Source: an uncultured Gammaproteobacteria bacterium
GTDB taxonomy: Bacteria; Pseudomonadota; Gammaproteobacteria; JABCZS01
NCBI GenBank assembly: GCA_963848305.1
Contig: CAWKDC010000001.1
Coordinates: 1-64,000, forward strand
Direction of reading: 5' to 3'
Length of the DNA: 64,000 bases
Under the pieces are notes generated by a model, which had not been told where the DNA came from, ran no database searches, and was given only the letters and a program-made list of their open reading frames with translations. The translations under genes were made by a program, and so were the position numbers. Shown one piece after another: positions 46,816-58,488 of the stretch (position 1 is the first letter of the stretch; each line of letters begins with the position of its first letter).

Positions 46816-48159
46816 ATGAAGACCGGAAATCACAAATTTGACCGCGGGACTGCATTAATACTCGCCACGGCCTGCATTGCCATGGCCATTTTAGCCACGT
46901 CTTGTGGTGGTGGGGCCGGCAGCAGCGCCACCGCTGATACAGCCTCCACAACAGGACTCTCGATAAGTCCCCCTACCGTGACCTTCGGCAGCCAAGCTGT
47001 TGGGACGGCAAGTGCGGCCCAGACCAACACCGTCACGAATGCGGGCAACTCGGCCGTGGGCATTTCCAGCATTGCGCTCGGAGGGACAAATCCCAGCGAC
47101 TTTGCACAATCCACTAACTGCGGCTCCACCGTTGCGGCGGGTGCCAGTTGCACAATCACCGTGACCTTCCAACCGACGGCGACGGGAACTCGCAGCGCCG
47201 AAGTAACTGTCACCGACAATGTCTCCCACAGCCCCCATAAGGTCAGCGTCAGCGGAACGGGTATGGCGTCTACTGTCACCCTATCTCCCACCAGCCTCAC
47301 TTTCGCCAGCCAAACCGTCGGCGCCGCCAGCGCGGCCCAGACCATCACGCTGAGCAACTCGGGCAACGCGGCCTTAAGTGTGACCAGCATCGCGGTCTCC
47401 GGCGCCAACGCCAGTGACTTTACAGAAACCAATAATTGCGGATCAAGCGTGGCGGCTGGAGCCAATTGCACGATCAGCGTTACCTTCAAGCCGGCCGCGG
47501 CAGGAGCTCGCACCGCCGCCATCTCCGTTACGGACAACGCTACCGGCGGCCCGCAGAGCGCGGTCCTTTCGGGCACCGGGGGGAGCACTACCGCCGCGGC
47601 CAGCGTTTCGCCCACCAGCCTGTCTTTTGGGAACGAAGCGGTGGACATGGTCAGCACCTCGCAAGTCGTTACCCTGAGCAACACAGGCAGCGCGGGCTTG
47701 GGCATCTCGAGCATCGCCTTTACGGGTGCTGATGCCGCCGACTTCACGGAGGTTGACACTTGCAGTCCCGCGGTGGCCGCAGGGAGCACTTGCACGATCG
47801 CAATTTTATTTACACCCGCCGCCAGCGGAACGCGCACGGCTACCTTGAGCATCGCCGACAATGCCACCGGCAGCCCGCAGTCCGTGTCGCTTTCGGGCTC
47901 GGGAACGCACGACGTAATGCTGTCTTGGACCGCCAGTTCGACTCCTGGGGTCATGGGCTATAACGTCTACCGGGGGACGACCTCCGGTGGAGAGAGTGCG
48001 GCACCGCTGAATTCCGCGCCGGTTTGCAATACCACATTTGCGGACGCGAATGTCACGGCAGGAGCGACGTACTACTATCACGTGACGGCCATAGCTGCGA
48101 ATGATGTTACGCAGAGCTCGGCCTCGAACGAAACGACTGCAACCGTCCCCACACCTTAA
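46816..48159 (+). CDS. Lipoprotein with three choice-of-anchor D/ASH Ig-like repeats and an Fn3-like C-terminal domain
   Basis: ILATSC lipobox-like; 3x SPxxxxFG...CTIxVxFxP...; VMLSW..GYNVYRG..YYYHVTA. Confidence 0.8.
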   Translation: MKTGNHKFDRGTALILATACIAMAILATSCGGGAGSSATADTASTTGLSISPPTVTFGSQAVGTASAAQTNTVTNAGNSAVGISSIALGGTNPSDFAQSTNCGSTVAAGASCTITVTFQPTATGTRSAEVTVTDNVSHSPHKVSVSGTGMASTVTLSPTSLTFASQTVGAASAAQTITLSNSGNAALSVTSIAVSGANASDFTETNNCGSSVAAGANCTISVTFKPAAAGARTAAISVTDNATGGPQSAVLSGTGGSTTAAASVSPTSLSFGNEAVDMVSTSQVVTLSNTGSAGLGISSIAFTGADAADFTEVDTCSPAVAAGSTCTIAILFTPAASGTRTATLSIADNATGSPQSVSLSGSGTHDVMLSWTASSTPGVMGYNVYRGTTSGGESAAPLNSAPVCNTTFADANVTAGATYYYHVTAIAANDVTQSSASNETTATVPTP

Positions 48160-48370
48160 CATCTGACACCAGTGAGCTTGATGTCGAACGCCAACTCCCC
48201 CGGCTGGTTGCCTGACCGACGTCAAGGGGAATTCACCCCTGCCGTCCTTTGCTTCTCTTAGCGGACCCCCGTCCACGGACCGCCAATTCGTGGTAATTTG
48301 TACAAGCTTCCTTATACTCCGCCCGCACTGATCCGACTTAGATCAGGAGAGTGCCGGCGAGATCCTTACC

Positions 48371-49927
48371 ATGGGGATGAAAGGTATGAGCAAAGGACAG
48401 AAAGTGGCGATCTTTGACACAACGCTGAGGGATGGCGAGCAAGCGGCTGGGTCGAGGCTCAGCAGCCCCGATAAGCTCACGCTGGCGCGGCAGTTAGCCC
48501 GACTGAAAGTCGACGTCATCGAGGCCGGATATCCCGCTTCTTCGCCCGAAGACTTCGAGGCCGTCAAGCGGATCGCGCAGGAGATTGACGGCCCGGTGAT
48601 CTGCGGTTTGTCGCGTGCCGTGCCCGAGGACATTGAGGCCTGCGGCAAGGCGCTGGCGAGGGCCAAAAGGCCCCGCATCCATACCGGCATCGGCGTTTCG
48701 GATATTCACATCATGGGGAAATTCCGCGACGAGAAATACGGCAAGACGCTCGGTGAGAAGAAGGTCAAAATGATGCAGATGGCAGTGGAGGCGGTCAAGC
48801 GGGCTCGCAGCCACGCCGATGACGTGGAGTTCTACGCCGAAGACTCCGGCCGCGCCGAGCCGGCGTACCTCTACGAAATCCTCGAGGCCGCCATTGATGC
48901 CGGCGCCACCGTCGTCAACATTCCCGATACCACCGGCTACGCGGTGCCGGAGCAGTACGGAGCACTGATTCGGGGCATTGCCGAGAACGTCCGCAACATC
49001 CAAAGCGCCACCATCAGCGTCCACTGCCATGACGACCTGGGCATGGCGGTTGCCAACTCGCTCGCGGGCATCCGCAACGGCGCCCGCCAGGTGGAGGGTA
49101 CCATCAATGGAGTCGGAGAACGGGCGGGCAACGCCGCGCTGGAAGAGATCGTCATGGCCCTCCGCACGCGAGCCGACTTCTTTGGGGTGTCTACCGGCAT
49201 CGACACCCGCGAACTGTATCGCACTAGCCGCCTGGTATCCGATCTGCTCGGCACGGTGGTTCCGCCCAATAAAGCCGTGGTGGGCGGAAATGCGTTCTCG
49301 CACAGCTCGGGAATCCACGTGGATGGATTTCTGAAAGACCGGGAGACTTACGAGATCATGCGCCCGGAGGACGTCGGCCTGGCGCAGAGCCACGTGGTTT
49401 TGACGGCGCGCACCGGACGCGCCGGGTTGCGCGCGCGCCTGGAAAAGCTGGGGCACAAGCTTTCCAAAGAGGATCTGGACGTCATCTATCAGCGCTTTCT
49501 GGCCGTGGCGGACAAGAAACTCGAGGTTTTCGACGAGGACCTGGTTGCCATCGTGCGCGACGAATTACACCCGGTGCCCGAAGTCTGGCAGCTCGAATAC
49601 TTGCACGTTTCCAGCGGTACTTCGGCCATCCCCACCGCCACCCTGCGCTTGCGCGTCCATGGGGACGTGCGGGAGGGGGCCGCGATCGGAAACGGTCCCG
49701 TAGACGCCGTCTATAAAGCGATCACGGCACTGGCGGGAGACTCTGTCCGACTGGTGCGCTACGACATTCACGCCGTGACGGGCGGCACGGGAGCCATGGG
49801 CGAAGTAACCGTGCAGCTCGAAAAAGGGGAGCGGCGGGTCGTGGGGCGGGGCGCATCCACTGACGTGATTGAAGCGAGTGCCAAAGCGTACCTGGACGGG
49901 CTCAATCGATTGGCGAGCCTCGGCTAG
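48371..49927 (+). CDS. leuA: 2-isopropylmalate synthase
   Basis: IFDTTLRDGEQ, HCHDDLG, GVGERAGNA, HSSGIH and the C-terminal regulatory domain (GNGPVDA). Confidence 0.9.
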   Translation: MGMKGMSKGQKVAIFDTTLRDGEQAAGSRLSSPDKLTLARQLARLKVDVIEAGYPASSPEDFEAVKRIAQEIDGPVICGLSRAVPEDIEACGKALARAKRPRIHTGIGVSDIHIMGKFRDEKYGKTLGEKKVKMMQMAVEAVKRARSHADDVEFYAEDSGRAEPAYLYEILEAAIDAGATVVNIPDTTGYAVPEQYGALIRGIAENVRNIQSATISVHCHDDLGMAVANSLAGIRNGARQVEGTINGVGERAGNAALEEIVMALRTRADFFGVSTGIDTRELYRTSRLVSDLLGTVVPPNKAVVGGNAFSHSSGIHVDGFLKDRETYEIMRPEDVGLAQSHVVLTARTGRAGLRARLEKLGHKLSKEDLDVIYQRFLAVADKKLEVFDEDLVAIVRDELHPVPEVWQLEYLHVSSGTSAIPTATLRLRVHGDVREGAAIGNGPVDAVYKAITALAGDSVRLVRYDIHAVTGGTGAMGEVTVQLEKGERRVVGRGASTDVIEASAKAYLDGLNRLASLG

Positions 49928-50145
49928 AAGGCCGGACGTCGGGGTTTCCATGGCGCCGTCCTCGGGTCAAGCGAAATCATACGAAAGGGGAAACTTCCGG
50001 AAACGAAGGCTACCCGACAGTTATCGGTGAACGCTGGGCGACTACCGAGGAGTTATTTCCCCGAACCCCGTATCCGCGGAGTTTGCATACTTGCTGGTAG
50101 TAAGGGCGTTTTCCCACGCGGAATCCGCATTTAGGGTAGGTGCTG

Positions 50146-50487
50146 CTATCCGGCGAGCCTGCGGAAGGTAGGGTGTTCGCTCCCCGCTGTGGTCGCCGCT
50201 GGAGTCTTGCGGTAGACGAAAACGATTTTGCCGGACTCGGGGACGGCGTCACGGTCGGGCTGAACGCCGCGGTCGTTCACCAGGTGGGCGAACACGGCTT
50301 GGGCGGCGTCGGTGGTGTAGGCTTCGCGATAGGTTAACTCATCGCCCAGATCGGCCTCCCGGTGCCGCTGGAAGAACGGCCCGCGCGCATCTTTGGCCGT
50401 CCCTACGCACCATTCCTCGCACGCACCCCCGTGTTTCCGAATGTGCCCTTCCATGTCTTCAATAATTTCCTGACGGTTGATAGGCAT
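50146..50487 (-). CDS. Hypothetical protein
   Basis: 113-aa ORF with ATG and a purine-rich leader. Confidence 0.55.
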   Translation of the reverse strand: MPINRQEIIEDMEGHIRKHGGACEEWCVGTAKDARGPFFQRHREADLGDELTYREAYTTDAAQAVFAHLVNDRGVQPDRDAVPESGKIVFVYRKTPAATTAGSEHPTFRRLAG

Positions 50488-50652
50488 AATCGTAGCCTTT
50501 CTCTTCAGTTTTAAATCTTGAATCTGCCCCTCGCCCCTTGTCAGTCGTTACTCGCCACTAGTTCTTGGGCGTTTCACATTTGCAAACATGTGAACGCTCG
50601 TCGTATTGGGAGCCGCGGAGTAGTTCTGAGATAGGCGCAACGCGCTACCCGC

Positions 50653-50809
50653 CTTCTCCGAAAAAAAATTCCGGCAGAAATTGGACTACATGCACAAGAA
50701 CCCGGTGACGCGCGGCCTGGTGATCTCTCCCGGTGATTGGCCGTGGTCAAGCTGGAGGTTCTACTATTCACAGGATGCATCGATTCTCCGCATGGACCGG
50801 ATGCGTTGA
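50653..50809 (+). pseudogene. 3' fragment of the RAYT transposase
   Basis: Near-identical to 53722-53878 (FSEKK..KLDYMH.NPV..WPWSSWRFY..LRMDRMR*). Confidence 0.88.
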
Positions 50810-50825
50810 GTCCAACTTTCGAGAA

Positions 50826-50881
50826 GTCCCTTCGGGAGATCGCAGACTTCAAAGAGCCGGAGTCTGCCAGCCCCCGTGTCT
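50826..50881. repeat. RAYT right-flank REP, copy 2
   Basis: gtcccttcgggagatcgcagacttcaaagagccggagtctgccagcccccgtgtct matches 53895-53951. Confidence 0.85.
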
Positions 50882-50950
50882 TGCAGCATTTCGACATTGA
50901 AGGTTACTAAGCAAGATTATGTTATGATCCCAGGAACCATCGGCTTGGCA

Positions 50951-50986
50951 CGCAGACACACATCAAGAGCAATGCGCCAGCCGGCC
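50951..50986. repeat. Degenerate REP facing the RHS cassette
   Basis: cgcagacac...gcgccagccggcc; the last 13 nt are the exact reverse complement of 53228-53240. Confidence 0.65.
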
Positions 50987-51029
50987 GGAAGCCCTGGAGC
51001 TGCATATTAGTGCCACAGGGCGGGAGAGG

Positions 51030-51563
51030 TCATTTCGTGATCGTCACGTCACTAACGGACTTGAGGATCAGTCGAGTCTGATACAACGTACTGGGCGTGA
51101 ACCCATAGCCTTTCCTGACGACGGTCTTGCCAGTCTTATCCGTCACTGTCAATTTGTCTGGACCGTCGAACCGTCCGACGAGCGTCGCGAATACTCGGCC
51201 TTCTGGAGGCTTAGAGGACGGGCCGATCTGCAGTCCCCACCCGTACTTCGAAAGCGCTTCGTCCAACTTCTTGAGATTCTCATCTTTCAATAGACTGAAT
51301 TCAGGGCGGTCCGAGTCTCGCACGAGGTCCGGGGAATAGAGCGCGACGGCCGCCCCTTTGTGGTCGCACTCCGCCAGGAGGACAGAAATCTCGAATGCCG
51401 CGTAGACTTGCGTGCGAATGCGAACCATTTTCCCGCTAAAGGCCGCCGGGTTCCGAACGAGCTCGCACACCGTGGTGTCAATGGGGTTCATAGCCGCCCT
51501 GTCGGGCAACGCACAAATTCCGAGCGCCACGATCGCCAATAGAATCGTTCTCAATGTGGACAT
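51030..51563 (-). CDS. Putative periplasmic immunity protein (OB-fold-like)
   Basis: 17 nt downstream of the RHS toxin stop; signal peptide; TVCELVRNPAAFSGKMVRIR. Confidence 0.65.
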   Translation of the reverse strand: MSTLRTILLAIVALGICALPDRAAMNPIDTTVCELVRNPAAFSGKMVRIRTQVYAAFEISVLLAECDHKGAAVALYSPDLVRDSDRPEFSLLKDENLKKLDEALSKYGWGLQIGPSSKPPEGRVFATLVGRFDGPDKLTVTDKTGKTVVRKGYGFTPSTLYQTRLILKSVSDVTITK

Positions 51564-51580
51564 GTGATCTCCCTTCCCGC

Positions 51581-53227
51581 CTACTGCTGCTCCCAGGGGT
51601 CATGATAGGGCAATGGGTCAACAAAGATCTTGCCGGGATTCAGACGAGGGTACGTACCCATGATCAGATTCGATGTGCCAGCATCGTTGAAACCTCGGCC
51701 ACTCGTAAAGATAGTGTAGCCGCCAGCCGAAAGACCGGACAGGCCAAGCCCTTGTGCCACCCAAGCGGACGTTTCATACCCGCGATACTCGAACGAGAAG
51801 TCCGGCAGCGGGGCCGTCGAACTCCTTGGATCGAGATTGTCCATCACGTGGGTTCCCTCGTGGCCAGCATTTATCGCCATGATGGTTTCGTTTGGATTCT
51901 TGCTCATGTCGAACGTAACTGCTGAGCCGACCGTTGCAGCAGCACCTAGCCCGCGCAGGTCGCCGGTCGTGACGGTCACTCCGTTATCATCGCCTGCCTT
52001 GCCATAGGTCTTCAGAACTGCATCGAGCCTCGCACGCTCCTCGCTGCCCTTTCCGAAGCTGTTTCTCGCCGCTTTTATGTCGTCCAACGAATCCTTAAAC
52101 TCTTTCTTGAAAGCCTTGAAATCAGCGTTACACTGTTTGTCAGATTTCTCGCAAGGGTTCTTGAAATCGTAGAGCCCGGTGGGATCGACGCGAGTGGTGG
52201 GATTATTCCGGACATAAGCATACATATTCCAGGTCTGGGGGTCGCTGGGGTCGGCAGCGGCCAGGCCTGCCGGGTCGGGGGTGAGCCAGCGGCCGGCCAG
52301 GTCGTCATAGACCCGGTGCGGGGCCAATTTAAAATCGCCATCCCCCTCCTGAAACGCCGCCCACTCCCACTCCCATAAATTACCGGCCGTTTGCCACAAC
52401 TGACCCCAGGGGTACCACAGTAAGTCCTCGGTCCAGTTCCCCAGATGGTTGGTGTCCTGGGTTGCGGAACCGAGAAAGTTGGGGTGCTGAAGATAGGTCT
52501 CGTTGTTGTCACGGGAATATGCTGCGATTTTCCGCCCCCCCGCTCGTACCTGGTCCACCCACAAGCTGCTGCCGTCGGCGTTCCCCAGCCAATCACCATT
52601 GGGAGCGAACAATGCGGACATGTTGGTCCACGGCACGGCATAGTAGACCTCTTGGCCGAAGGCATTATAAACTGCGCTGGAATTGGTTTCCCGCCCCTCG
52701 CCATCCCAGGAGAAGCTATTCGTGCCGTCACTGGTCAGATTCCCCGCGGCGTCGTAGCTGAAGCCGTCAATGCGATTCGGGTAATTGTTGTAAGTCAATA
52801 CCGGGCAAGGGCCGTTCGTAGACCCGTTCATCAAGCAGGTCATGTTGCCGTAGGCGTCATAGCCAAAGGCGAGGTTATACGTGCTGTTGCCGCTCGCCTG
52901 CGCGCAAGCCAGGCGATTCACGCCGTCATAGACATACAAGGCCGAGTGGCTCATCGTGCTGTTCACCGCGTCCGTGAAAGTATAACCAATCACGTCGCCG
53001 TTGTTGCCGCTCCCGGACGCGGACACGGGGCAGCCGGGCGGCGTACTGCCGCCGGGCAAAGAGTAATTATACCCCAGTGTATAGTACGCTCCGGGGTTGC
53101 CGCTGGTGCCCAACTGAATCTGGGTCGGCTGCATCCGGTTATTGTAGGAGTAGGTTTCCTGGCTGTTCGTGCACCCGGAACCCGCGCAGCCGTTGGTGAG
53201 ACCGCTTAGCGCCCCCCAGGGAGTGTA
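51581..53227 (-). CDS. Orphan RHS C-terminal module with HExxH toxin domain (N-terminally truncated at a REP)
   Basis: YDGVNRL and YDAAGNLT repeats; GRWLTPDP..WNMYAYVRNNPTTRVDPTG; AGHEGTH...FEYRGY. Confidence 0.85.
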   Translation of the reverse strand, partial: YTPWGALSGLTNGCAGSGCTNSQETYSYNNRMQPTQIQLGTSGNPGAYYTLGYNYSLPGGSTPPGCPVSASGSGNNGDVIGYTFTDAVNSTMSHSALYVYDGVNRLACAQASGNSTYNLAFGYDAYGNMTCLMNGSTNGPCPVLTYNNYPNRIDGFSYDAAGNLTSDGTNSFSWDGEGRETNSSAVYNAFGQEVYYAVPWTNMSALFAPNGDWLGNADGSSLWVDQVRAGGRKIAAYSRDNNETYLQHPNFLGSATQDTNHLGNWTEDLLWYPWGQLWQTAGNLWEWEWAAFQEGDGDFKLAPHRVYDDLAGRWLTPDPAGLAAADPSDPQTWNMYAYVRNNPTTRVDPTGLYDFKNPCEKSDKQCNADFKAFKKEFKDSLDDIKAARNSFGKGSEERARLDAVLKTYGKAGDDNGVTVTTGDLRGLGAAATVGSAVTFDMSKNPNETIMAINAGHEGTHVMDNLDPRSSTAPLPDFSFEYRGYETSAWVAQGLGLSGLSAGGYTIFTSGRGFNDAGTSNLIMGTYPRLNPGKIFVDPLPYHDPWEQQ

Positions 53228-53281
53228 GGCCGGCTGGCGCTCAGACACCCGTTCTTTGGTGTCTGCGATTCCCGAAGGGAC
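53228..53281. repeat. RAYT left-flank REP
   Basis: ggctggcgctcagacacccgttctttggtgtctgcgattcccgaagggac; imperfect reverse complement of the right flank. Confidence 0.82.
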
Positions 53282-53326
53282 GTTCTCTTCCGGCCCCGCA
53301 CCGTCGAGAGTATACTCTTCTGCGCC

Positions 53327-53878
53327 ATGCCCTTCTACCACCGCGTTTACAGTCCCGGTGAACTGCAATTCATCACCACCAGCACCTATCGCCGCACGCC
53401 CCTTTTCCTCTCGGATCGCTTTCGGCGCTGCTTTGTCCAGAGGCTGGAGGAGGTGCGGCAGGAATTACATTTCCTGCTCGTCGGCTGGGTTCTGATGCCC
53501 GAGCATTTTCATATGCTGATCAAGCCCGAGCCCGCCGAAACCACTCCCCTGATTATGAAGGGGCTCAAGGAGGAATCGGCCAAGCGCATCATCAGAACAC
53601 TTCGGGAAAACCTTCGGTATCCTTGGTGCCGGAAGACGCTCGCCAGGCTGCGGCTGCCCTCCACGGTTCACGATGAATCACACTACCGCCTCTGGCAGCG
53701 CCGCTTTTACCCCTTCAATGTCTTCTCCGAAAAAAAATTCCAGCAGAAATTGGACTACATGCACAACAACCCGGTGACGCGCGGGCTGGTGAGTTCCCCC
53801 GGCGACTGGCCGTGGTCAAGCTGGAGGTTCTACTATTTGCAGGATGCGTCAATTCTCCGCATGGATCGGATGCGCTGA
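53327..53878 (+). CDS. REP-associated tyrosine transposase (RAYT, HUH/Y1)
   Basis: FITTSTY, VLMPEHFH (HUH), LWQRRF, YMHNNPV (catalytic Tyr) and WPWSS; flanked by inverted REPs. Confidence 0.92.
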   Translation: MPFYHRVYSPGELQFITTSTYRRTPLFLSDRFRRCFVQRLEEVRQELHFLLVGWVLMPEHFHMLIKPEPAETTPLIMKGLKEESAKRIIRTLRENLRYPWCRKTLARLRLPSTVHDESHYRLWQRRFYPFNVFSEKKFQQKLDYMHNNPVTRGLVSSPGDWPWSSWRFYYLQDASILRMDRMR

Positions 53879-53894
53879 GCTCAACTTACCAGAA

Positions 53895-53951
53895 GTCCCT
53901 TCGGGAGATCGCAGACTCCAAAGAGCCGAAGTCTGCGCCAGCCCCGTGTCT
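53895..53951. repeat. RAYT right-flank REP
   Basis: gtcccttcgggagatcgcagactccaaagagccgaagtctgcgccagccccgtgtct. Confidence 0.85.
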
Positions 53952-54217
53952 GGAAATGGTTGAGTGATCTTTACAATCGTGCCTGAGAGAGCCGGCGCGG
54001 CGATCTCCGCGGCAATCTTCCCGGCTGCCAGCCTACCCATCAAGTCCTGACCGAGGCTCACGAACAACGAAAATGGAATAAGGAATTTGACCGAGGCGCT
54101 AAGCCAAAGCCAGTAGCGGACTTGGGCGCGATTCTTGCGGAAGGCGAGCGTCAGCAGCCCCACCACAACCGCAAACACCGTTGATTGCCACAAATGGTTC
54201 GTCACCTCAGCGATCAT
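53952..54217 (-). pseudogene. BlaR1/M56 peptidase N-terminal fragment, truncated at the RAYT right end
   Basis: NHLWQSTVFA..RAQVRYWLWLSASVKFLIPFS; no HExxH domain follows. Confidence 0.8.
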
Positions 54218-54614
54218 TTCGATTCATGCTTCCTTTCTGCTTGTGTTCGAGATCAAGCTTCTTGATGGTCTTCTCCAACTCTCGAACGTCATCAAGGGTG
54301 AGCTTCCCCGCTTCGGCCAACTGCGCCATCATGGGTTGAGCCTGCCCTCCGAAGAAACTCAGAATGTCGTCAAGGAGCCGGCGGCGTGCCACGTCCCGGG
54401 GCACCGTCGGTTCGAAAATATGAGCGTTGCCGATCTTCCGGACTCGGCGCACTGCCTTCTTGCCCTCCAGCCGGTACACCGTGGTCTGGATGGTGGTGTA
54501 TGCCGGCCGAGGCTCCGGAAACGACTCCTGGATCTCCCGAATGGCTGCCTTTCCATGGGTCCATAGGACTTCGAGGATTTGGAGTTCGAGCTTGGTCAAT
54601 TTTGGTCGGGCCAT
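54207..54614 (-). CDS. BlaI/MecI/CopY family repressor
   Basis: LTKLELQILEVLW, AYTTIQTTVYRLEGK and FFGGQAQPMMAQL motifs. Confidence 0.9.
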   Translation of the reverse strand: MARPKLTKLELQILEVLWTHGKAAIREIQESFPEPRPAYTTIQTTVYRLEGKKAVRRVRKIGNAHIFEPTVPRDVARRRLLDDILSFFGGQAQPMMAQLAEAGKLTLDDVRELEKTIKKLDLEHKQKGSMNRNDR

Positions 54615-54638
54615 GTGCCTTCTACTATTCTCCATCTA

Positions 54639-54666
54639 AAATTACTACAATATAGTAGTATGTCAA
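54639..54666 (-). promoter_or_regulatory. Sigma70 promoter with a BlaI-type operator TACTAC-N6-GTAGTA in the spacer
   Basis: Minus strand TTGACA (54666-54661), 16 nt, TAATTT; palindrome at 54643-54660. Confidence 0.7.
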
Positions 54667-54961
54667 GAAAAATATTTTGCGACCTTGGAGGGCGATTGGT
54701 CGCCCGCTCGAAGCTGATCGACACTCCCGCTGATTACTCCTGCGTGGTCGCCCAGCGTCTACCGATCCATGGAAATCTGGGCGGATCACGGCCACTCGGA
54801 AGCTATTCCGGTCAAGTCCCCTTCGAGGAGGTTTGTCCTGGCAGAGCACTCGCCGGATTAATCGCGAGTAACGGCGTACGGTAGAGCGGTCGCCCAGTTC
54901 CCGCCTCGCGCAGTCTGCACCTATTATCGGCAATACGCCGCCAGCCGGCTGTAGCGTCATC

Positions 54962-55264
54962 TAAGCCGTTAACCTAGGGATTGGAAGCGCCCCAAAGCCC
55001 GCGATGCGGGCGTGATCATGTCGCCATGGGAAAAACGTAGGGGAACATGTTCTGAGCCCCGGAGGGGGCGACATCGGGCCCCGTTGGTGGGGAATCAAGC
55101 ACGGTCGGCGGCAGGTTTTGGCCAGAAGAATTCACCGATGCCGCCCCTACGGGGCTGACGAGGCCCGCATGGCATCAGCATCCCACGGCTGGCTAGCCGT
55201 GGGCTACAGGATGTCGCCACTGCCGCGGCTTTGGATCAGACCACTTCCCTTGGGTTGACGCTTA
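54962..55264. mobile_element. Non-autonomous palindromic element (nested hairpins with imperfect terminal IRs)
   Basis: taagccgttaacctaggga / tcccttgggttgacgctta; internal agccccggagggggcgacatc / gatgccgcccctacggggct and cccacggct..agccgtggg; no TSD seen. Confidence 0.55.
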
Positions 55265-55477
55265 TTGGCCGGTTGGCCTGGGCATTGTTAGGACGCCCAT
55301 TTGGGGCTGGGAAGTACGAACGTCTATGTCGAATTCACTCCATCAAATTAGGACATCACCGGATGCCCCAATAATTTGACAATCGCGGAAACTGGCTTTA
55401 TCAATAATAGGGCTGGAATTTCAGGCAAGTCCTTCCGATAAAAGAAAATCCAGACTGACAATAGAGCGGAGGTTTTT

Positions 55478-56950
55478 GTGCGGCAACCAGAAAAGGCGAC
55501 GGTGGGAGTATTCGGGATTGGGCTGGCGGCATACTGGCCACAGTTCCACGGGCTCAAGGAGCGGCTGGAAGGCTACCAGCGCAAGGTGGAACAGCGCATC
55601 GGCCAATGGGCCACGGTCGTCAGCGCCGGCCTGGTGGACGACACTCCCAAAGGTCTCCAAGCCGGTGAAGCCTTTCGTCGCGCGAGCGTCGATCTGGTTT
55701 TCTGCTACGTCGGCACCTACGCAACTTCCTCCACCGTATTGCCCGTCATCCAACACGCCAAGGCGCCCGTGGTGGTTCTGAACCTGCAACCACGCGCCGC
55801 GCTCGATTATGCGCACACCGATACGGGCGAGTGGCTGGCCAACTGCTCCGCCTGCTGCGTTCCGGAAATCTCCGGAGCGTTTGCCCGCGCGGCCATTCCC
55901 TTCCGGCAAGTCACCGGCATGCTCGACCCGGAACCCGATGTGCGCGAACCGAGCGAATCCGCGTGGAGCGGAAATCGAGGAATGGTGCGCCGCCGCCAGG
56001 GTGGTTCACAATCAGCGCCGGGCTCGCATCGGATTCCTCGGGCACCCCTACCCCGGAATGCTCGATATGTACAGCGACTTCACCCAGCACCAGGCGCAAC
56101 TGGGGACGCACATCGAAGTTGCTGGAAATGTGCGACCTGGAGGCGCGCGTGAGCGCCGCCACGGATGCCGAGATCGCGCGCAAGGCGGAGGAGACGCGCA
56201 GCATCTTTGACATCAGTGAGGACAGCCCGTCCGACCCGCTGGCGAAAAAGCCCGCCCCGGAGCAGATGGATTGGGCCTGCCGCGTTGCCGTGGGGCTCGA
56301 TCACCTGGTGGAGGATTTTGACCTCGACGGCCTGGCCTACTACTACCGCGGCGTGGGCGGCAACATGTATGAGCGGATCTGGGCGCGGCGTGATCCTGGG
56401 ATGCTCGCTGCTGACCGCGCGCGGAATTCCCTGCTCCGGTGAAGCCGATCTGAAAAATTGCCAGGCGATGAAGATCATGGACCTGCTGGGCGCGGGAGGC
56501 AGCTACACGGAGCTTTACGCCATGGACTTCCGCGAGCGCTTCATCCTGATGGGCCACGACGGCCCCTTCCATCTGGCCATCGCCGAAGGCCGGCCGATCC
56601 TGCGCGGGCTCGGCCTCTACCATGGCAAATCGGGATTCGGCGTCAGCGTGGAAGCCAGCGTGCGCAAAGGCCCCATCACCATCCTCGGCCTCACCCAAAC
56701 CTGCGATGGCCGGCTGAAATTTCTCGCGGCCGAAGGCGAATGCCTCGCCGGCGAGCGGCTGAAGATCGGCAACACCAACAGCCGCCTGCGATTCGCGCTT
56801 GAACCCGCGCCGTTCATCAATGCCTATTGCAGCGAGGGGCCTACCCACCATTGCGCGCTGGGCGTCGGCCACGTCCTGGGCAAGCTTAAGAAGGTGTCAT
56901 GGCTCACGGGGCTGGAACTGAAAGTCATCGGGCCGACGAGCGGGCAATAA
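55478..56950 (+). CDS. L-fucose/L-arabinose isomerase family protein (frameshifted)
   Basis: YWPQFHGL, GMLDMYSD, GEADL, GGSYTE, LMGHDGP and GPTHHCALGVGH motifs. Confidence 0.85.
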
Positions 56951-57266
56951 GCGTTTCGTCAAGTTACCAGGATGCAAGCATAGGAGCCCAGTGCCACGAG
57001 CGAGCGCAATGCTCTCCTCGAGTGGTCGCAGGCGAAAGAATGTGTTGCAGTTTACCACACAGGTGTGCGCAAATTTCCCCACAAATAGTCCTACCCACAC
57101 CGGCATAAGTGTTCAACTTTTAAACAAACCGACCCCTGAATAGACATTTAGTTCCTGTTATGACGCAGACTTTTGGTCATAGTCTTGCGCGGAACCGTGC
57201 AGATCCGCGGCTTGGAGGACTTTATCCACCGCAAATTCGGAAGAGAGTGCTGCTTCGGATTGGGGG

Positions 57267-57731
57267 ATGGCATTGAGTCGCTTTTTCCGAGATTCCGGAC
57301 ACTTGATTCGTCCCGCGCTGGTCCTGCTGGCGGGAGTGGTTATCTTTCTGATTATCCGTGCCGCTGTGGTGCCCAAAGACTTTGGGAAATATGGACACTA
57401 CCGGGCGGGTGCGCTTGACATGATCGCCGCGCTCCCCATTGCCTATGCCGGCGGAAGCCAATGCGCCCTCTGCCACGACCAGGAAGCCAAGGTGCATGAC
57501 GGGGGTAAGCATGCGAGTGTGCATTGCGAGGCCTGCCACGGCCCCCTGGCCAAACACGCTGACGATCCCGTCGCCAATGTGCCCAAGCTGCCCGACGTAG
57601 CCAACCTCTGCCGGCGCTGCCATGAAAAAGACGCCGCCAAGCCGAAAGGCTTTCCCCAAGTGGATACGGTCGCGCACTCCCAGGGCATGCTTTGCAACAC
57701 TTGTCACCAGCCGCACAATCCGCACCTCTGA
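57267..57731 (+). CDS. Membrane-anchored tetraheme cytochrome c
   Basis: N-terminal TM; CALCH, CEACH, CRRCH, CNTCH. Confidence 0.88.
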   Translation: MALSRFFRDSGHLIRPALVLLAGVVIFLIIRAAVVPKDFGKYGHYRAGALDMIAALPIAYAGGSQCALCHDQEAKVHDGGKHASVHCEACHGPLAKHADDPVANVPKLPDVANLCRRCHEKDAAKPKGFPQVDTVAHSQGMLCNTCHQPHNPHL

Positions 57732-57747
57732 GGGAGGAGTTAGAAGC

Positions 57748-58488
57748 ATGGAATTCAGCAGGCGAGACCTCTTCAAGATTGGCGGAAAAATCCTGGTGCT
57801 GGCCTCCACCGGCGCCACGCTCGAACAGATCATGGGCGCTGCCCCTGCGCCTGAAGCCTACCGGAGGGCGGACCACTGGTGGGGCATGATCATCGACATC
57901 GACAAGTGCATTGGCTGCGGAAGCTGTGTGCGCGCCTGCTCGCAGGAGAACCACGTGCCCGCCGGGTACTTCCGGACCTGGGTGGAGCGGTATCAGGTGG
58001 AGGAAGGAAAGCAGCCCATCGTCGACTCGCCCAATGGAGCGATGGAGGGCTTCCCCGTCGCTACGCGCGCGGGCCTCAAGAGCTTCTTCGTTCCCAAACT
58101 TTGCAACCACTGCGCCGATTCCCCATGCGTGCAGGTCTGCCCGGTGGGTGCGACGTTCCTGAGCCCGGATGGCGTCGTCCTGGTGGACACGACCTATTGC
58201 CTTGGCTGCCGGTATTGCATCCAGGCTTGCCCGTATGGCTGCCGTTACCTGCATCCGGAAAAACATGTGGTGGATAAGTGCTCGCTCTGCTATCACCGCA
58301 TTACCAAGGGTCTCACCACCGCCTGCTGCGAGAACTGTCCCACAGGGGCGCGCCAATTGGTGGATTTCAAAAACCCCAACGATCCCGTTCACGAGTTCCT
58401 GCGCAATAACAAAGTCGAGGTGCTGAAGCCGTATATGGCCACGGGAGCGAAGGTCTACTACAAGGATCTGGATGGCGCGGTGCGATAA
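57748..58488 (+). CDS. Tat-exported 4Fe-4S protein (NrfC/DmsB family)
   Basis: SRRDLFK; CIGCGSCVRAC, CNHCADSPCVQVCP, CLGCRYCIQACPY and KCSLCYHR motifs. Confidence 0.9.
   Translation: MEFSRRDLFKIGGKILVLASTGATLEQIMGAAPAPEAYRRADHWWGMIIDIDKCIGCGSCVRACSQENHVPAGYFRTWVERYQVEEGKQPIVDSPNGAMEGFPVATRAGLKSFFVPKLCNHCADSPCVQVCPVGATFLSPDGVVLVDTTYCLGCRYCIQACPYGCRYLHPEKHVVDKCSLCYHRITKGLTTACCENCPTGARQLVDFKNPNDPVHEFLRNNKVEVLKPYMATGAKVYYKDLDGAVR

Follow-up and report, generated by a model that had tools for sequence, protein, structure and literature searches.

A relic RHS toxin-immunity array, probably colonized and eroded by insertion sequence-like RAYT elements, in an Acidobacteriota-like stretch of DNA

RAYTs (REP-associated tyrosine transposases), named after repeats of the repetitive extragenic palindromic (REP) type, are usually described as single-copy, domesticated genes, and their cellular role is unsettled. 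According to Bertels et al. (2017, PMC5581495), classical RAYTs are near single-copy, with 1.3-1.8 per replicon, and do not copy themselves. In the rearrangement hotspot (RHS) loci of Escherichia coli, partial cores and variable tips are reported downstream of rhs genes, with the insertion sequence (IS)-like H-repeat (H-rpt) embedded among them (PMC3032704), and in Vibrio, bicistronic MIX V effector-immunity units are reported at varied genomic sites beside transposase genes, from which the authors infer module movement (PMC4549250). Here we analyze a locus in a 64-kb stretch of contig C1 of assembly G000 (the window; coordinates refer to this whole stretch), in which a RAYT gene flanked by REP sequences abuts an orphan RHS toxin-immunity cassette. 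The initial annotation proposed that the RAYT captures and shuffles this cassette as cargo. Our analysis does not support active cassette shuffling; the explanation that we consider probable is a decaying RHS orphan array that was colonized and eroded by IS-like RAYT elements.

The features on which the argument depends are listed below; L and G numbers denote comparison loci and genomes.

50642-50652, plus strand: apparent remnant of a REP foot, GCGCTACCCGC, joined to a RAYT 3' fragment; counterpart in L091
50653-50809, plus strand: RAYT 3' fragment, codons ~132-183 and stop, non-functional; 91% identical to 53722-53878
50822-50884, plus strand: REP_R copy of the RAYT fragment, hairpin 50842-50867; from repeat analysis
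50940-50986, plus strand: decayed solo REP, oriented as a right end, with the left 'foot' (50974-50986) as its final 13 nt; alignment with REP_R of L056 and L079
51030-51563, minus strand: candidate immunity protein of 177 aa, encoded immediately downstream of the tip; no Pfam or NCBIfam match
51581-52171, minus strand: RHS C-terminal toxin tip, 196 aa, with HEGTH (HExxH), beginning just past the ..DPTGL core end
52172-53227, minus strand: 5'-truncated RHS core fragment, ~352 aa; TIGR03696 45.8 bits against a threshold of 32.5, and alignment with L083
53228-53290, no strand: REP_L, left terminal inverted repeat of the full element, foot 53228-53240; inverted arm, and start of homology in 22 copies
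53327-53878, plus strand: intact RAYT gene, 183 aa, Y1 HUH transposase; NF047646 120.2 bits, Y1_Tnp 37.3 bits
53890-53951, no strand: REP_R, right terminal inverted repeat, hairpin 53911-53936, foot GCGCCAGCC; homology to other copies stops at 53943-53944
53952-54217, minus strand: blaR1 N-terminal remnant, 88 codons; Peptidase_M56 homologue in L082

The RAYT protein matches the curated RAYT model NF047646 well above its cut-off of 80 bits and the Pfam Y1_Tnp domain above the threshold of 23 bits, and its HUH motif PEHFHML and tyrosine motif DYMHNNPV align with those of E. coli TnpA_REP (PDB 4ER8). The score against NF033573, the IS200 equivalog, is 32.6 bits, under the cut-off of 55. The gene is flanked by 48-nt inverted arms (53239-53286 and 53891-53938), in agreement with the intact RAYT and inverted REPs of the initial annotation. 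In 22 full copies from other metagenome-assembled genomes (MAGs), homology to the window is confined to the region from 53227-53232 through 53943-53944, and the flanks are unrelated. The mobile unit is an IS-like element of ~716 bp (53228-53944) with the organization foot-REP_L ... RAYT ... REP_R-foot, and the 'REP feet' are therefore the outward-pointing tips of this element. Its left end has the structure (CGCC)GGCTGGCGCAGAC-loop-GTCTGCGAT..CCCGAAGGGAC and its right end is the reverse complement of the left; the outward tips, GGCTGGCGC... and ...GCGCCAGCC, are conserved, and the terminal inverted repeats are of the REP type and ~50 nt long. Among the 22 full copies the hairpin stem sequences vary, yet pairing is preserved. 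No target-site duplication was seen by eye, the 4 nt outside GGCTGGCGC and GCGCCAGCC being G+C-rich and variable.

Relatives of the RAYT protein, often several per genome, were found in MAGs of Acidobacteriota/Terriglobia (259 in total), and NF047646 matches number 6-34 per genome. Close full copies also occur several per MAG; for example, L007, L018 and L030 come from one genome. When window positions 48000-58000 were compared with nine related genomes, each genome gave 15-68 matches, and most of the 150 matches listed (there are 293 further ones) are pieces of the element; one of the nine, the unpublished genome G026, bears no claim here. These relatives carry dozens of element pieces and some solo REPs, and REPIN-like short doublets with outward feet are present in L027 and L044. 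Derivatives of ~310 nt that resemble miniature inverted-repeat transposable elements (MITEs) retain the outer ends and have an internal joint between 53344 and 53748; six copies were detected in two genomes (G003:C2:901182-901492, G003:C54:30755-31057, two on G023:C6, G023:C179:5728-6038 and G023:C27:479-735). Another internal deletion form, from 53313 to 53787, is found in one metagenome contig. The family does not have the single-copy, vertically inherited distribution of a 'domesticated' RAYT; it is a discrete unit with defined ends that multiplies within genomes, as is typical of IS, and this Acidobacteriota RAYT clade behaves as an active IS/MITE family.

The element thus shares with the RAYT/TnpA_REP and REP/REPIN systems the NF047646 match, the motif alignment with 4ER8, the inverted REP hairpins and, in relatives, the short doublets. 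Unlike in classical RAYTs, the gene-plus-REP unit is multi-copy and has MITE-like deletion derivatives, and the REP of this RAYT was seen only beside RAYT copies in the ~140 kb of the organism's DNA that was scanned in G000. With IS200/IS605 the element has in common the Y1_Tnp domain, terminal hairpins, many copies per genome and non-autonomous derivatives, but it scores below the cut-off of NF033573 and ends in true ~50-nt inverted repeats rather than in distinct left and right hairpins. In addition, sub-threshold matches to NF047646 were observed within open frames of 949-1455 aa (G012:C47:28880, G012:C74:89207, G014:C9:440023, G021:C223:2783 and G007:C51:46976), which may represent large proteins with a fused Y1/HUH domain.

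The polarity of the ends places the cassette outside the mobile unit. The inverted repeat of 13 nt reported in the initial annotation, GCGCCAGCCGGCC (50974-50986) and GGCCGGCTGGCGC (53228-53240), is indeed exact. On length alone it is weak, as ~0.16 such pairs are expected by chance in 4.7 kb; its 12-mer GCGCCAGCCGGC, which occurs exactly at just these two sites in the 64 kb, is the canonical outer tip of the element family. Because the right-end foot (50974-50986) is on the left and the left-end foot (53228) is on the right, the cassette lies between two elements, and the 'bounding' inverted repeat consists of the outer tips of these two neighbours. Since the feet face the cassette while element ends face outward, the cassette is host DNA caught between insertions and not cargo. 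The claim that inward REP feet bound the cassette thus holds with respect to their orientation, but the left foot belongs to a decayed solo REP, of which it forms the tip, and the feet mark the DNA between elements. This solo REP aligns with REP_R of the sister subfamily in L056 and L079 (CGGCTTGG..CGCA.ACA..GCAATG..CGCCA.CC) and has lost part of its 3' hairpin arm; the tblastx comparison of the flanks, which was mostly noise, served only as the lead to it.

Further to the left lies a second relic. The segment 50653-50867 is a 215-nt duplicate of 53722-53936 (91% identity), and the whole duplicated RAYT 3' end with its REP, which had been recognized in the initial annotation, spans 50653-50884. 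In L091, from a genome with a RAYT that is 97% identical, a RAYT fragment starts at the identical nucleotide (CTTCTCCGAAAA), behind a complete REP hairpin and a foot that ends in GCGCCAGCCCCGT. By this comparison, GCGCTACCCGC in the window, described earlier as the sequence directly after which the RAYT fragment starts, appears to be the decayed, foot-like counterpart of the L091 hairpin and foot, and the RAYT 3' fragment at 50653 does not seem to be a random stump.

The stretch between the two feet has the organization of an RHS orphan cassette (core, toxin and immunity gene at 51030-53227), as the initial annotation had it: the core-end motif is followed by a variable tip with a small immunity gene next to it, and the N-terminal part is missing. 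The TIGR03696 core occupies residues 319-399 of the RHS open reading frame (ORF), with ..RVDPTGL directly before the tip. Residues 1-352 of the fragment align with the full-length RHS protein of L083 (53% over 372 aligned positions), and this alignment begins at the first residue past 53227, which identifies a 5' truncation of RHS at the REP foot, where the initial annotation had placed it. In the matches to residues 1-50 of the 595-aa ORF (L002, L004-L007, L010, L018, L030 and L064), the left end of the RAYT is read on the other strand; they are not RHS and were excluded from the counts. No full-length rhs gene was found near the cassette, and the window retains the orphan only. For the toxin tip, no Pfam or NCBIfam family was matched; in the Atlas it falls closest to unnamed clusters (0.90-0.91), with M91 (0.87) and Tox-MPTase4 (0.85) as leads only, and the HEGTH motif makes a zinc metallopeptidase toxin possible. 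The N-terminus of the immunity candidate resembles a signal peptide by eye, and the candidate occurs together with the tip in L031 (67%) and L088 (69%). Judging from its gene structure, the orphan toxin gene, without an N-terminal delivery part, is probably silent, and the candidate immunity gene may still be protective.

L031 and L088 are the only other occurrences of this toxin-immunity module detected among contigs of one genome per species, and neither shares the REP boundaries of the window. In L088, homology covers exactly the tip and the immunity gene (51030-52165, 78%), and no RHS core, REP or RAYT was found by the module in this 4.9-kb contig. In L031, a RAYT element is located within an RHS array. 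The right foot of this element directly adjoins the tip, at the residue that corresponds to position 450 of the window ORF; on its left side the element is flanked by the immunity gene of an upstream cassette, and past the immunity gene of the module there is a further core fragment, not a REP. A composite transposon would carry its cargo inside outward-facing ends and recur with the same boundaries; here the cargo is not inside such ends, and neither of the two other occurrences has the same boundaries. Separately, a 14-mer within the RHS core frame of L031 (3293-3306, ..SWLAHADA..) shows 93% identity with the left tip of the RAYT element (TCG.GGCTGGCGCA; L031:1515-1528) and, by this resemblance, could be a pseudo-end or a target in RHS DNA.

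The truncation of blaR1 at ~53951, which the initial annotation had also noted, is of the same kind as that of RHS. The predicted protein (54217 down to 53952) shares 58% identity over residues 1-88 with the same residues of a Peptidase_M56 protein of 371 aa, which is encoded after blaI in L082; beyond them, the 122-aa ORF consists of REP sequence, and residues 93-123 match REP_R of other loci. Because nothing of the sensor is left beyond its residue 88, the BlaI/BlaR1 pair is apparently broken, with an intact repressor. RHS or toxin coding sequence lies 0-3 nt from a foot in the window, L003, L027, L031 and L091, and within ~50 nt in L043, so that breakpoints at REP feet do recur in other genomes, but the same module in L088 and L031 lacks the boundaries of the window. 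The breakpoints themselves differ, being at core residue 1 of the fragment in the window, 19 residues later in L003 and inside the toxin tip in L031. L027 repeats the arrangement of the window (a full RAYT, cassettes, a REP, and a RAYT 3' fragment with REP_R), whereas in L091 feet face a 615-nt internal piece of an RHS core from both sides, which is clearly a scrap and not a cassette. Nowhere among the window, L003, L027, L031 and L091 do the flanks of the element or REP add up to a single split gene; insertion was therefore followed or accompanied by an end-anchored deletion or rearrangement, and the same applies to blaR1.

RAYT genes are concentrated at RHS cores, as the initial annotation had predicted. 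We compared positions in 22 Acidobacteriota MAGs (149.7 Mb), with RHS cores defined by TIGR03696 matches (125 cores, in ~77 arrays grouped by eye) and RAYT genes by NF047646 (the best 150 of 365 matches, 127 of these 150 above the cut-off). DDE_Tnp_1 (the best 150 of 826 matches) and rve (137 matches) transposases served as controls; neighbors were counted by hand from tables, and many DDE copies are young and identical. The counts within 2 kb of an RHS core were as follows.

RAYT (NF047646): 10 of the best 150 of 365
DDE_Tnp_1: 2 of the best 150 of 826
rve: 2 of 137

All 10 RAYT genes are above the cut-off and lie within 1.7 kb of a core, against at most 0.53 expected (P ~3e-10); two of them (G012:C67 and G012:C8) may be copies of one region. 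The RAYT frequency is ~five-fold higher than that of the pooled controls (10/150, best of 365, against 4/287; Fisher P = 0.007). Because the controls are also slightly enriched (4/287 against ~1.0 expected, P = 0.02), part of the RAYT enrichment is a haven effect, but the excess at RHS arrays is real. Conversely, 140 of the best 150 of 365 RAYT genes have no RHS core nearby, and ~67 of the ~77 RHS arrays have no RAYT from this set within 2 kb. In nine of 80 RAYT loci surveyed, the RAYT lies within an RHS orphan array or at an array end; no DDE, rve or integrase genes were detected by Pfam among the 105 ORFs of these nine loci. Such arrays with an element inside resemble those of E. coli Rhs with H-rpt. 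H-rpt belongs to a DDE-type family (ISAs1), whereas the element here encodes a Y1 HUH RAYT, and only an orphan, with no full-length rhs nearby, is present in the window. The MIX V units of Vibrio are accompanied by other types of transposases, and the polarity of the ends in our locus argues against carriage.

One of the arrays, in L044 (5900-12546), combines an RHS orphan array and a RAYT gene with one in-frame TAG and is adjacent to a TacA/GNAT toxin-antitoxin pair and an IcmF/TssM gene of the type VI secretion system. Judging from this IcmF neighbor, the L044 array may be linked with type VI secretion; the link is seen in L044 alone and not in the window.

Under the favored explanation, 50146-53227 would be the remnant of a minus-strand RHS orphan toxin-immunity array that was invaded more than once by a multi-copy IS-like RAYT element. 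One full copy would now lie at the 5' end of the RHS fragment, and the sequences left of the cassette would be relics of earlier copies, namely a foot with the RAYT 3' fragment and its REP_R, followed by the decayed solo REP. Since the full copy is bordered by unrelated broken genes, RHS and blaR1, its insertion would have been followed by one or more deletions or rearrangements anchored at an element end, with loss of the 5' portion of RHS and the 3' portion of blaR1; these would be the work either of the transposase acting at the end of the element or of recombination among its copies. The anatomy of the locus, the element's polarity and copy number and the enrichment near RHS are observed; the order of these events and the mechanism of deletion are what we infer by comparing sequences. 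Several points weigh against this explanation or narrow it. The sequence does not separate deletions made by the transposase from recombination between copies. The joint of a foot to position 53722 (53721/53722) recurs in the window and L091 although the two fragments are only 84% alike, less than the 90-91% that each shares with a full copy, and this hints at a site-specific, enzyme-made joint. The ~five-fold excess of RAYT over DDE and rve may mean that a passive 'safe haven' is not the whole story. Furthermore, just ~140 kb of the organism's genome is present, which limits the REP census and the search for full-length RHS, and the family tables rest on the best 150 matches.

The closest competitor, which we regard as unlikely, is that RHS arrays are a passive safe haven only, where RAYTs insert at random and survive because the DNA is dispensable, the truncations arise by homologous recombination and the enzyme does nothing beyond insertion. 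The mild enrichment of DDE and rve near RHS cores fits this view, as do the varied sites of RAYT within arrays (core, tip, after the immunity gene and at array ends) and the divergence of the RAYT copies, which are hence old and have had time for survivorship. It accounts less well for an enrichment five times that of the controls, for precise joints of feet to non-homologous DNA, which recombination between copies alone does not make, and for the identical 53721/53722 joint in two genomes. The explanation of the initial annotation, that RAYT captures REP-foot-bounded RHS tip-immunity cassettes and relocates or reorders them, thereby driving the diversification of polymorphic toxins, is improbable. 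It draws on the co-localization at ~19 times chance (best 150 of 365 RAYT matches), on the RHS or toxin sequence abutting feet in five loci including the window, on the fact that, of the three known copies of the module, two carry a RAYT at the 5' end, and on the similar divergence of the window from L031 in the RAYT (71% nucleotide identity) and in the cassette (73%). Inward feet, however, are the signature of DNA outside the mobile unit, the breakpoints in the window, L003 and L031 are unlike, the L088 module is accompanied by neither REP nor RAYT in its contig, all examined RHS pieces next to RAYT are truncated relics, none joined in frame to a full-length RHS, and most RAYT copies (best 150 of 365) and most RHS arrays are unlinked. 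A search for the circular or alternative cassette junctions that had been suggested as a check found none in the contigs of four metagenomes, although contigs cannot reveal rare forms.

The chemistry of Y1 transposases is symmetrical, and a further reading, which we consider very improbable, is that Acidobacteriota RAYTs act specifically on RHS arrays. Cutting at one element's right foot and at the left foot of its neighbor would release the intervening DNA as a circle, with the two feet joined behind it, and by the reverse reaction such a circle would enter another foot-to-foot joint, in an integron-like exchange of toxin-immunity cassettes. If true, it would account for the inward feet, the joints exactly at feet and the excess of RAYT at RHS arrays, and would imply at least an enzyme-driven making and deleting of orphan cassettes. 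Finally, the juxtaposition of RHS, RAYT and blaR1 as an assembly artefact, a mis-join at a repeated element, is extremely unlikely. Contig C1 does contain at least one suspect join, where the G+C content changes from ~58% to ~46% near 140 kb, and no metagenome contig among the matches listed bridges 53227/8. The other junctions are nevertheless spanned, in part as the initial annotation required, by Logan contigs assembled from soil metagenomes of other studies: X2 crosses 50652/3, and X1 and X6 cross 50986/7, in each case with no differences, and the 2.5-kb contig X1 also crosses 53951/2. Identical contigs are present in soil metagenomes of four studies, showing that the arrangement at the locus is fixed, and the same kind of architecture exists in unrelated MAGs.

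As far as full-text literature searches go, the link between RAYTs and RHS arrays is unreported: no paper that connects RAYTs with Rhs cassettes was found in them, and a preprint naming both treats them separately. What emerges is a RAYT clade that is concentrated in RHS toxin arrays and sits at the positions where toxin genes have been truncated. Should the link be causal, HUH transposases would help to turn over, and mostly erode, polymorphic-toxin repertoires in soil bacteria; if it reflects survivorship only, the locus is a case of ordinary genome decay. In practical terms, the polarity of REP feet separates cargo from bystander DNA.

The following genes flank the features listed above; leuA was assigned by reading and from the ORF listing of 48500-55500.

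48371-49927, plus strand: leuA-like gene
50146-50487, minus strand: p113, 113-aa ORF of no known family; no Pfam or NCBIfam match
54207-54635, minus strand: blaI-type repressor, intact; Penicillinase_R 86.7 bits

Homologues of p113 are encoded within 6 kb of RAYT in four of the 80 RAYT loci (L032, L005, L051 and L004), and in L084 an RHS orphan array has a same-strand homologue (54% identity) at its tail. By this context, p113 may be a leftover gene of an RHS array, for example, an orphan immunity gene.

An ancestral or empty site was sought in the nine closest MAGs; none is syntenic across the locus, and only single flanking genes are common. These are homologues of 55366-56933 (81-86%) and, in G021, a homologue of blaI/blaR1 (74-76%); L018 has one flank in common with the window, arranged differently. 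On a larger scale, outside the window, the G+C content of contig C1 falls at ~136000-146000 and the low value persists through the remaining 1.4 Mb and contigs C2-C4. The Acidobacteriota-like 140 kb was probably mis-joined or mis-binned with the genome of another organism, and because of this switch only ~140 kb of the window's organism is in the assembly.

Two observations concern the region to the right of blaI. In the relatives for which both were among the matches listed, the genes at 55366-56933 and 57226-58000 have homologues with 81-88% identity; the two are located on different contigs in G001, G002, G003, G020, G021 and G023, so the segment 56933-57226 may be a lineage-specific join. 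Finally, parts of the intergenic region 55023-55361 recur in G024, G001 and G021, and a 42-nt piece of it (55267-55308) is present twice in L091 and once in L093; this region looks like another small repeat family.

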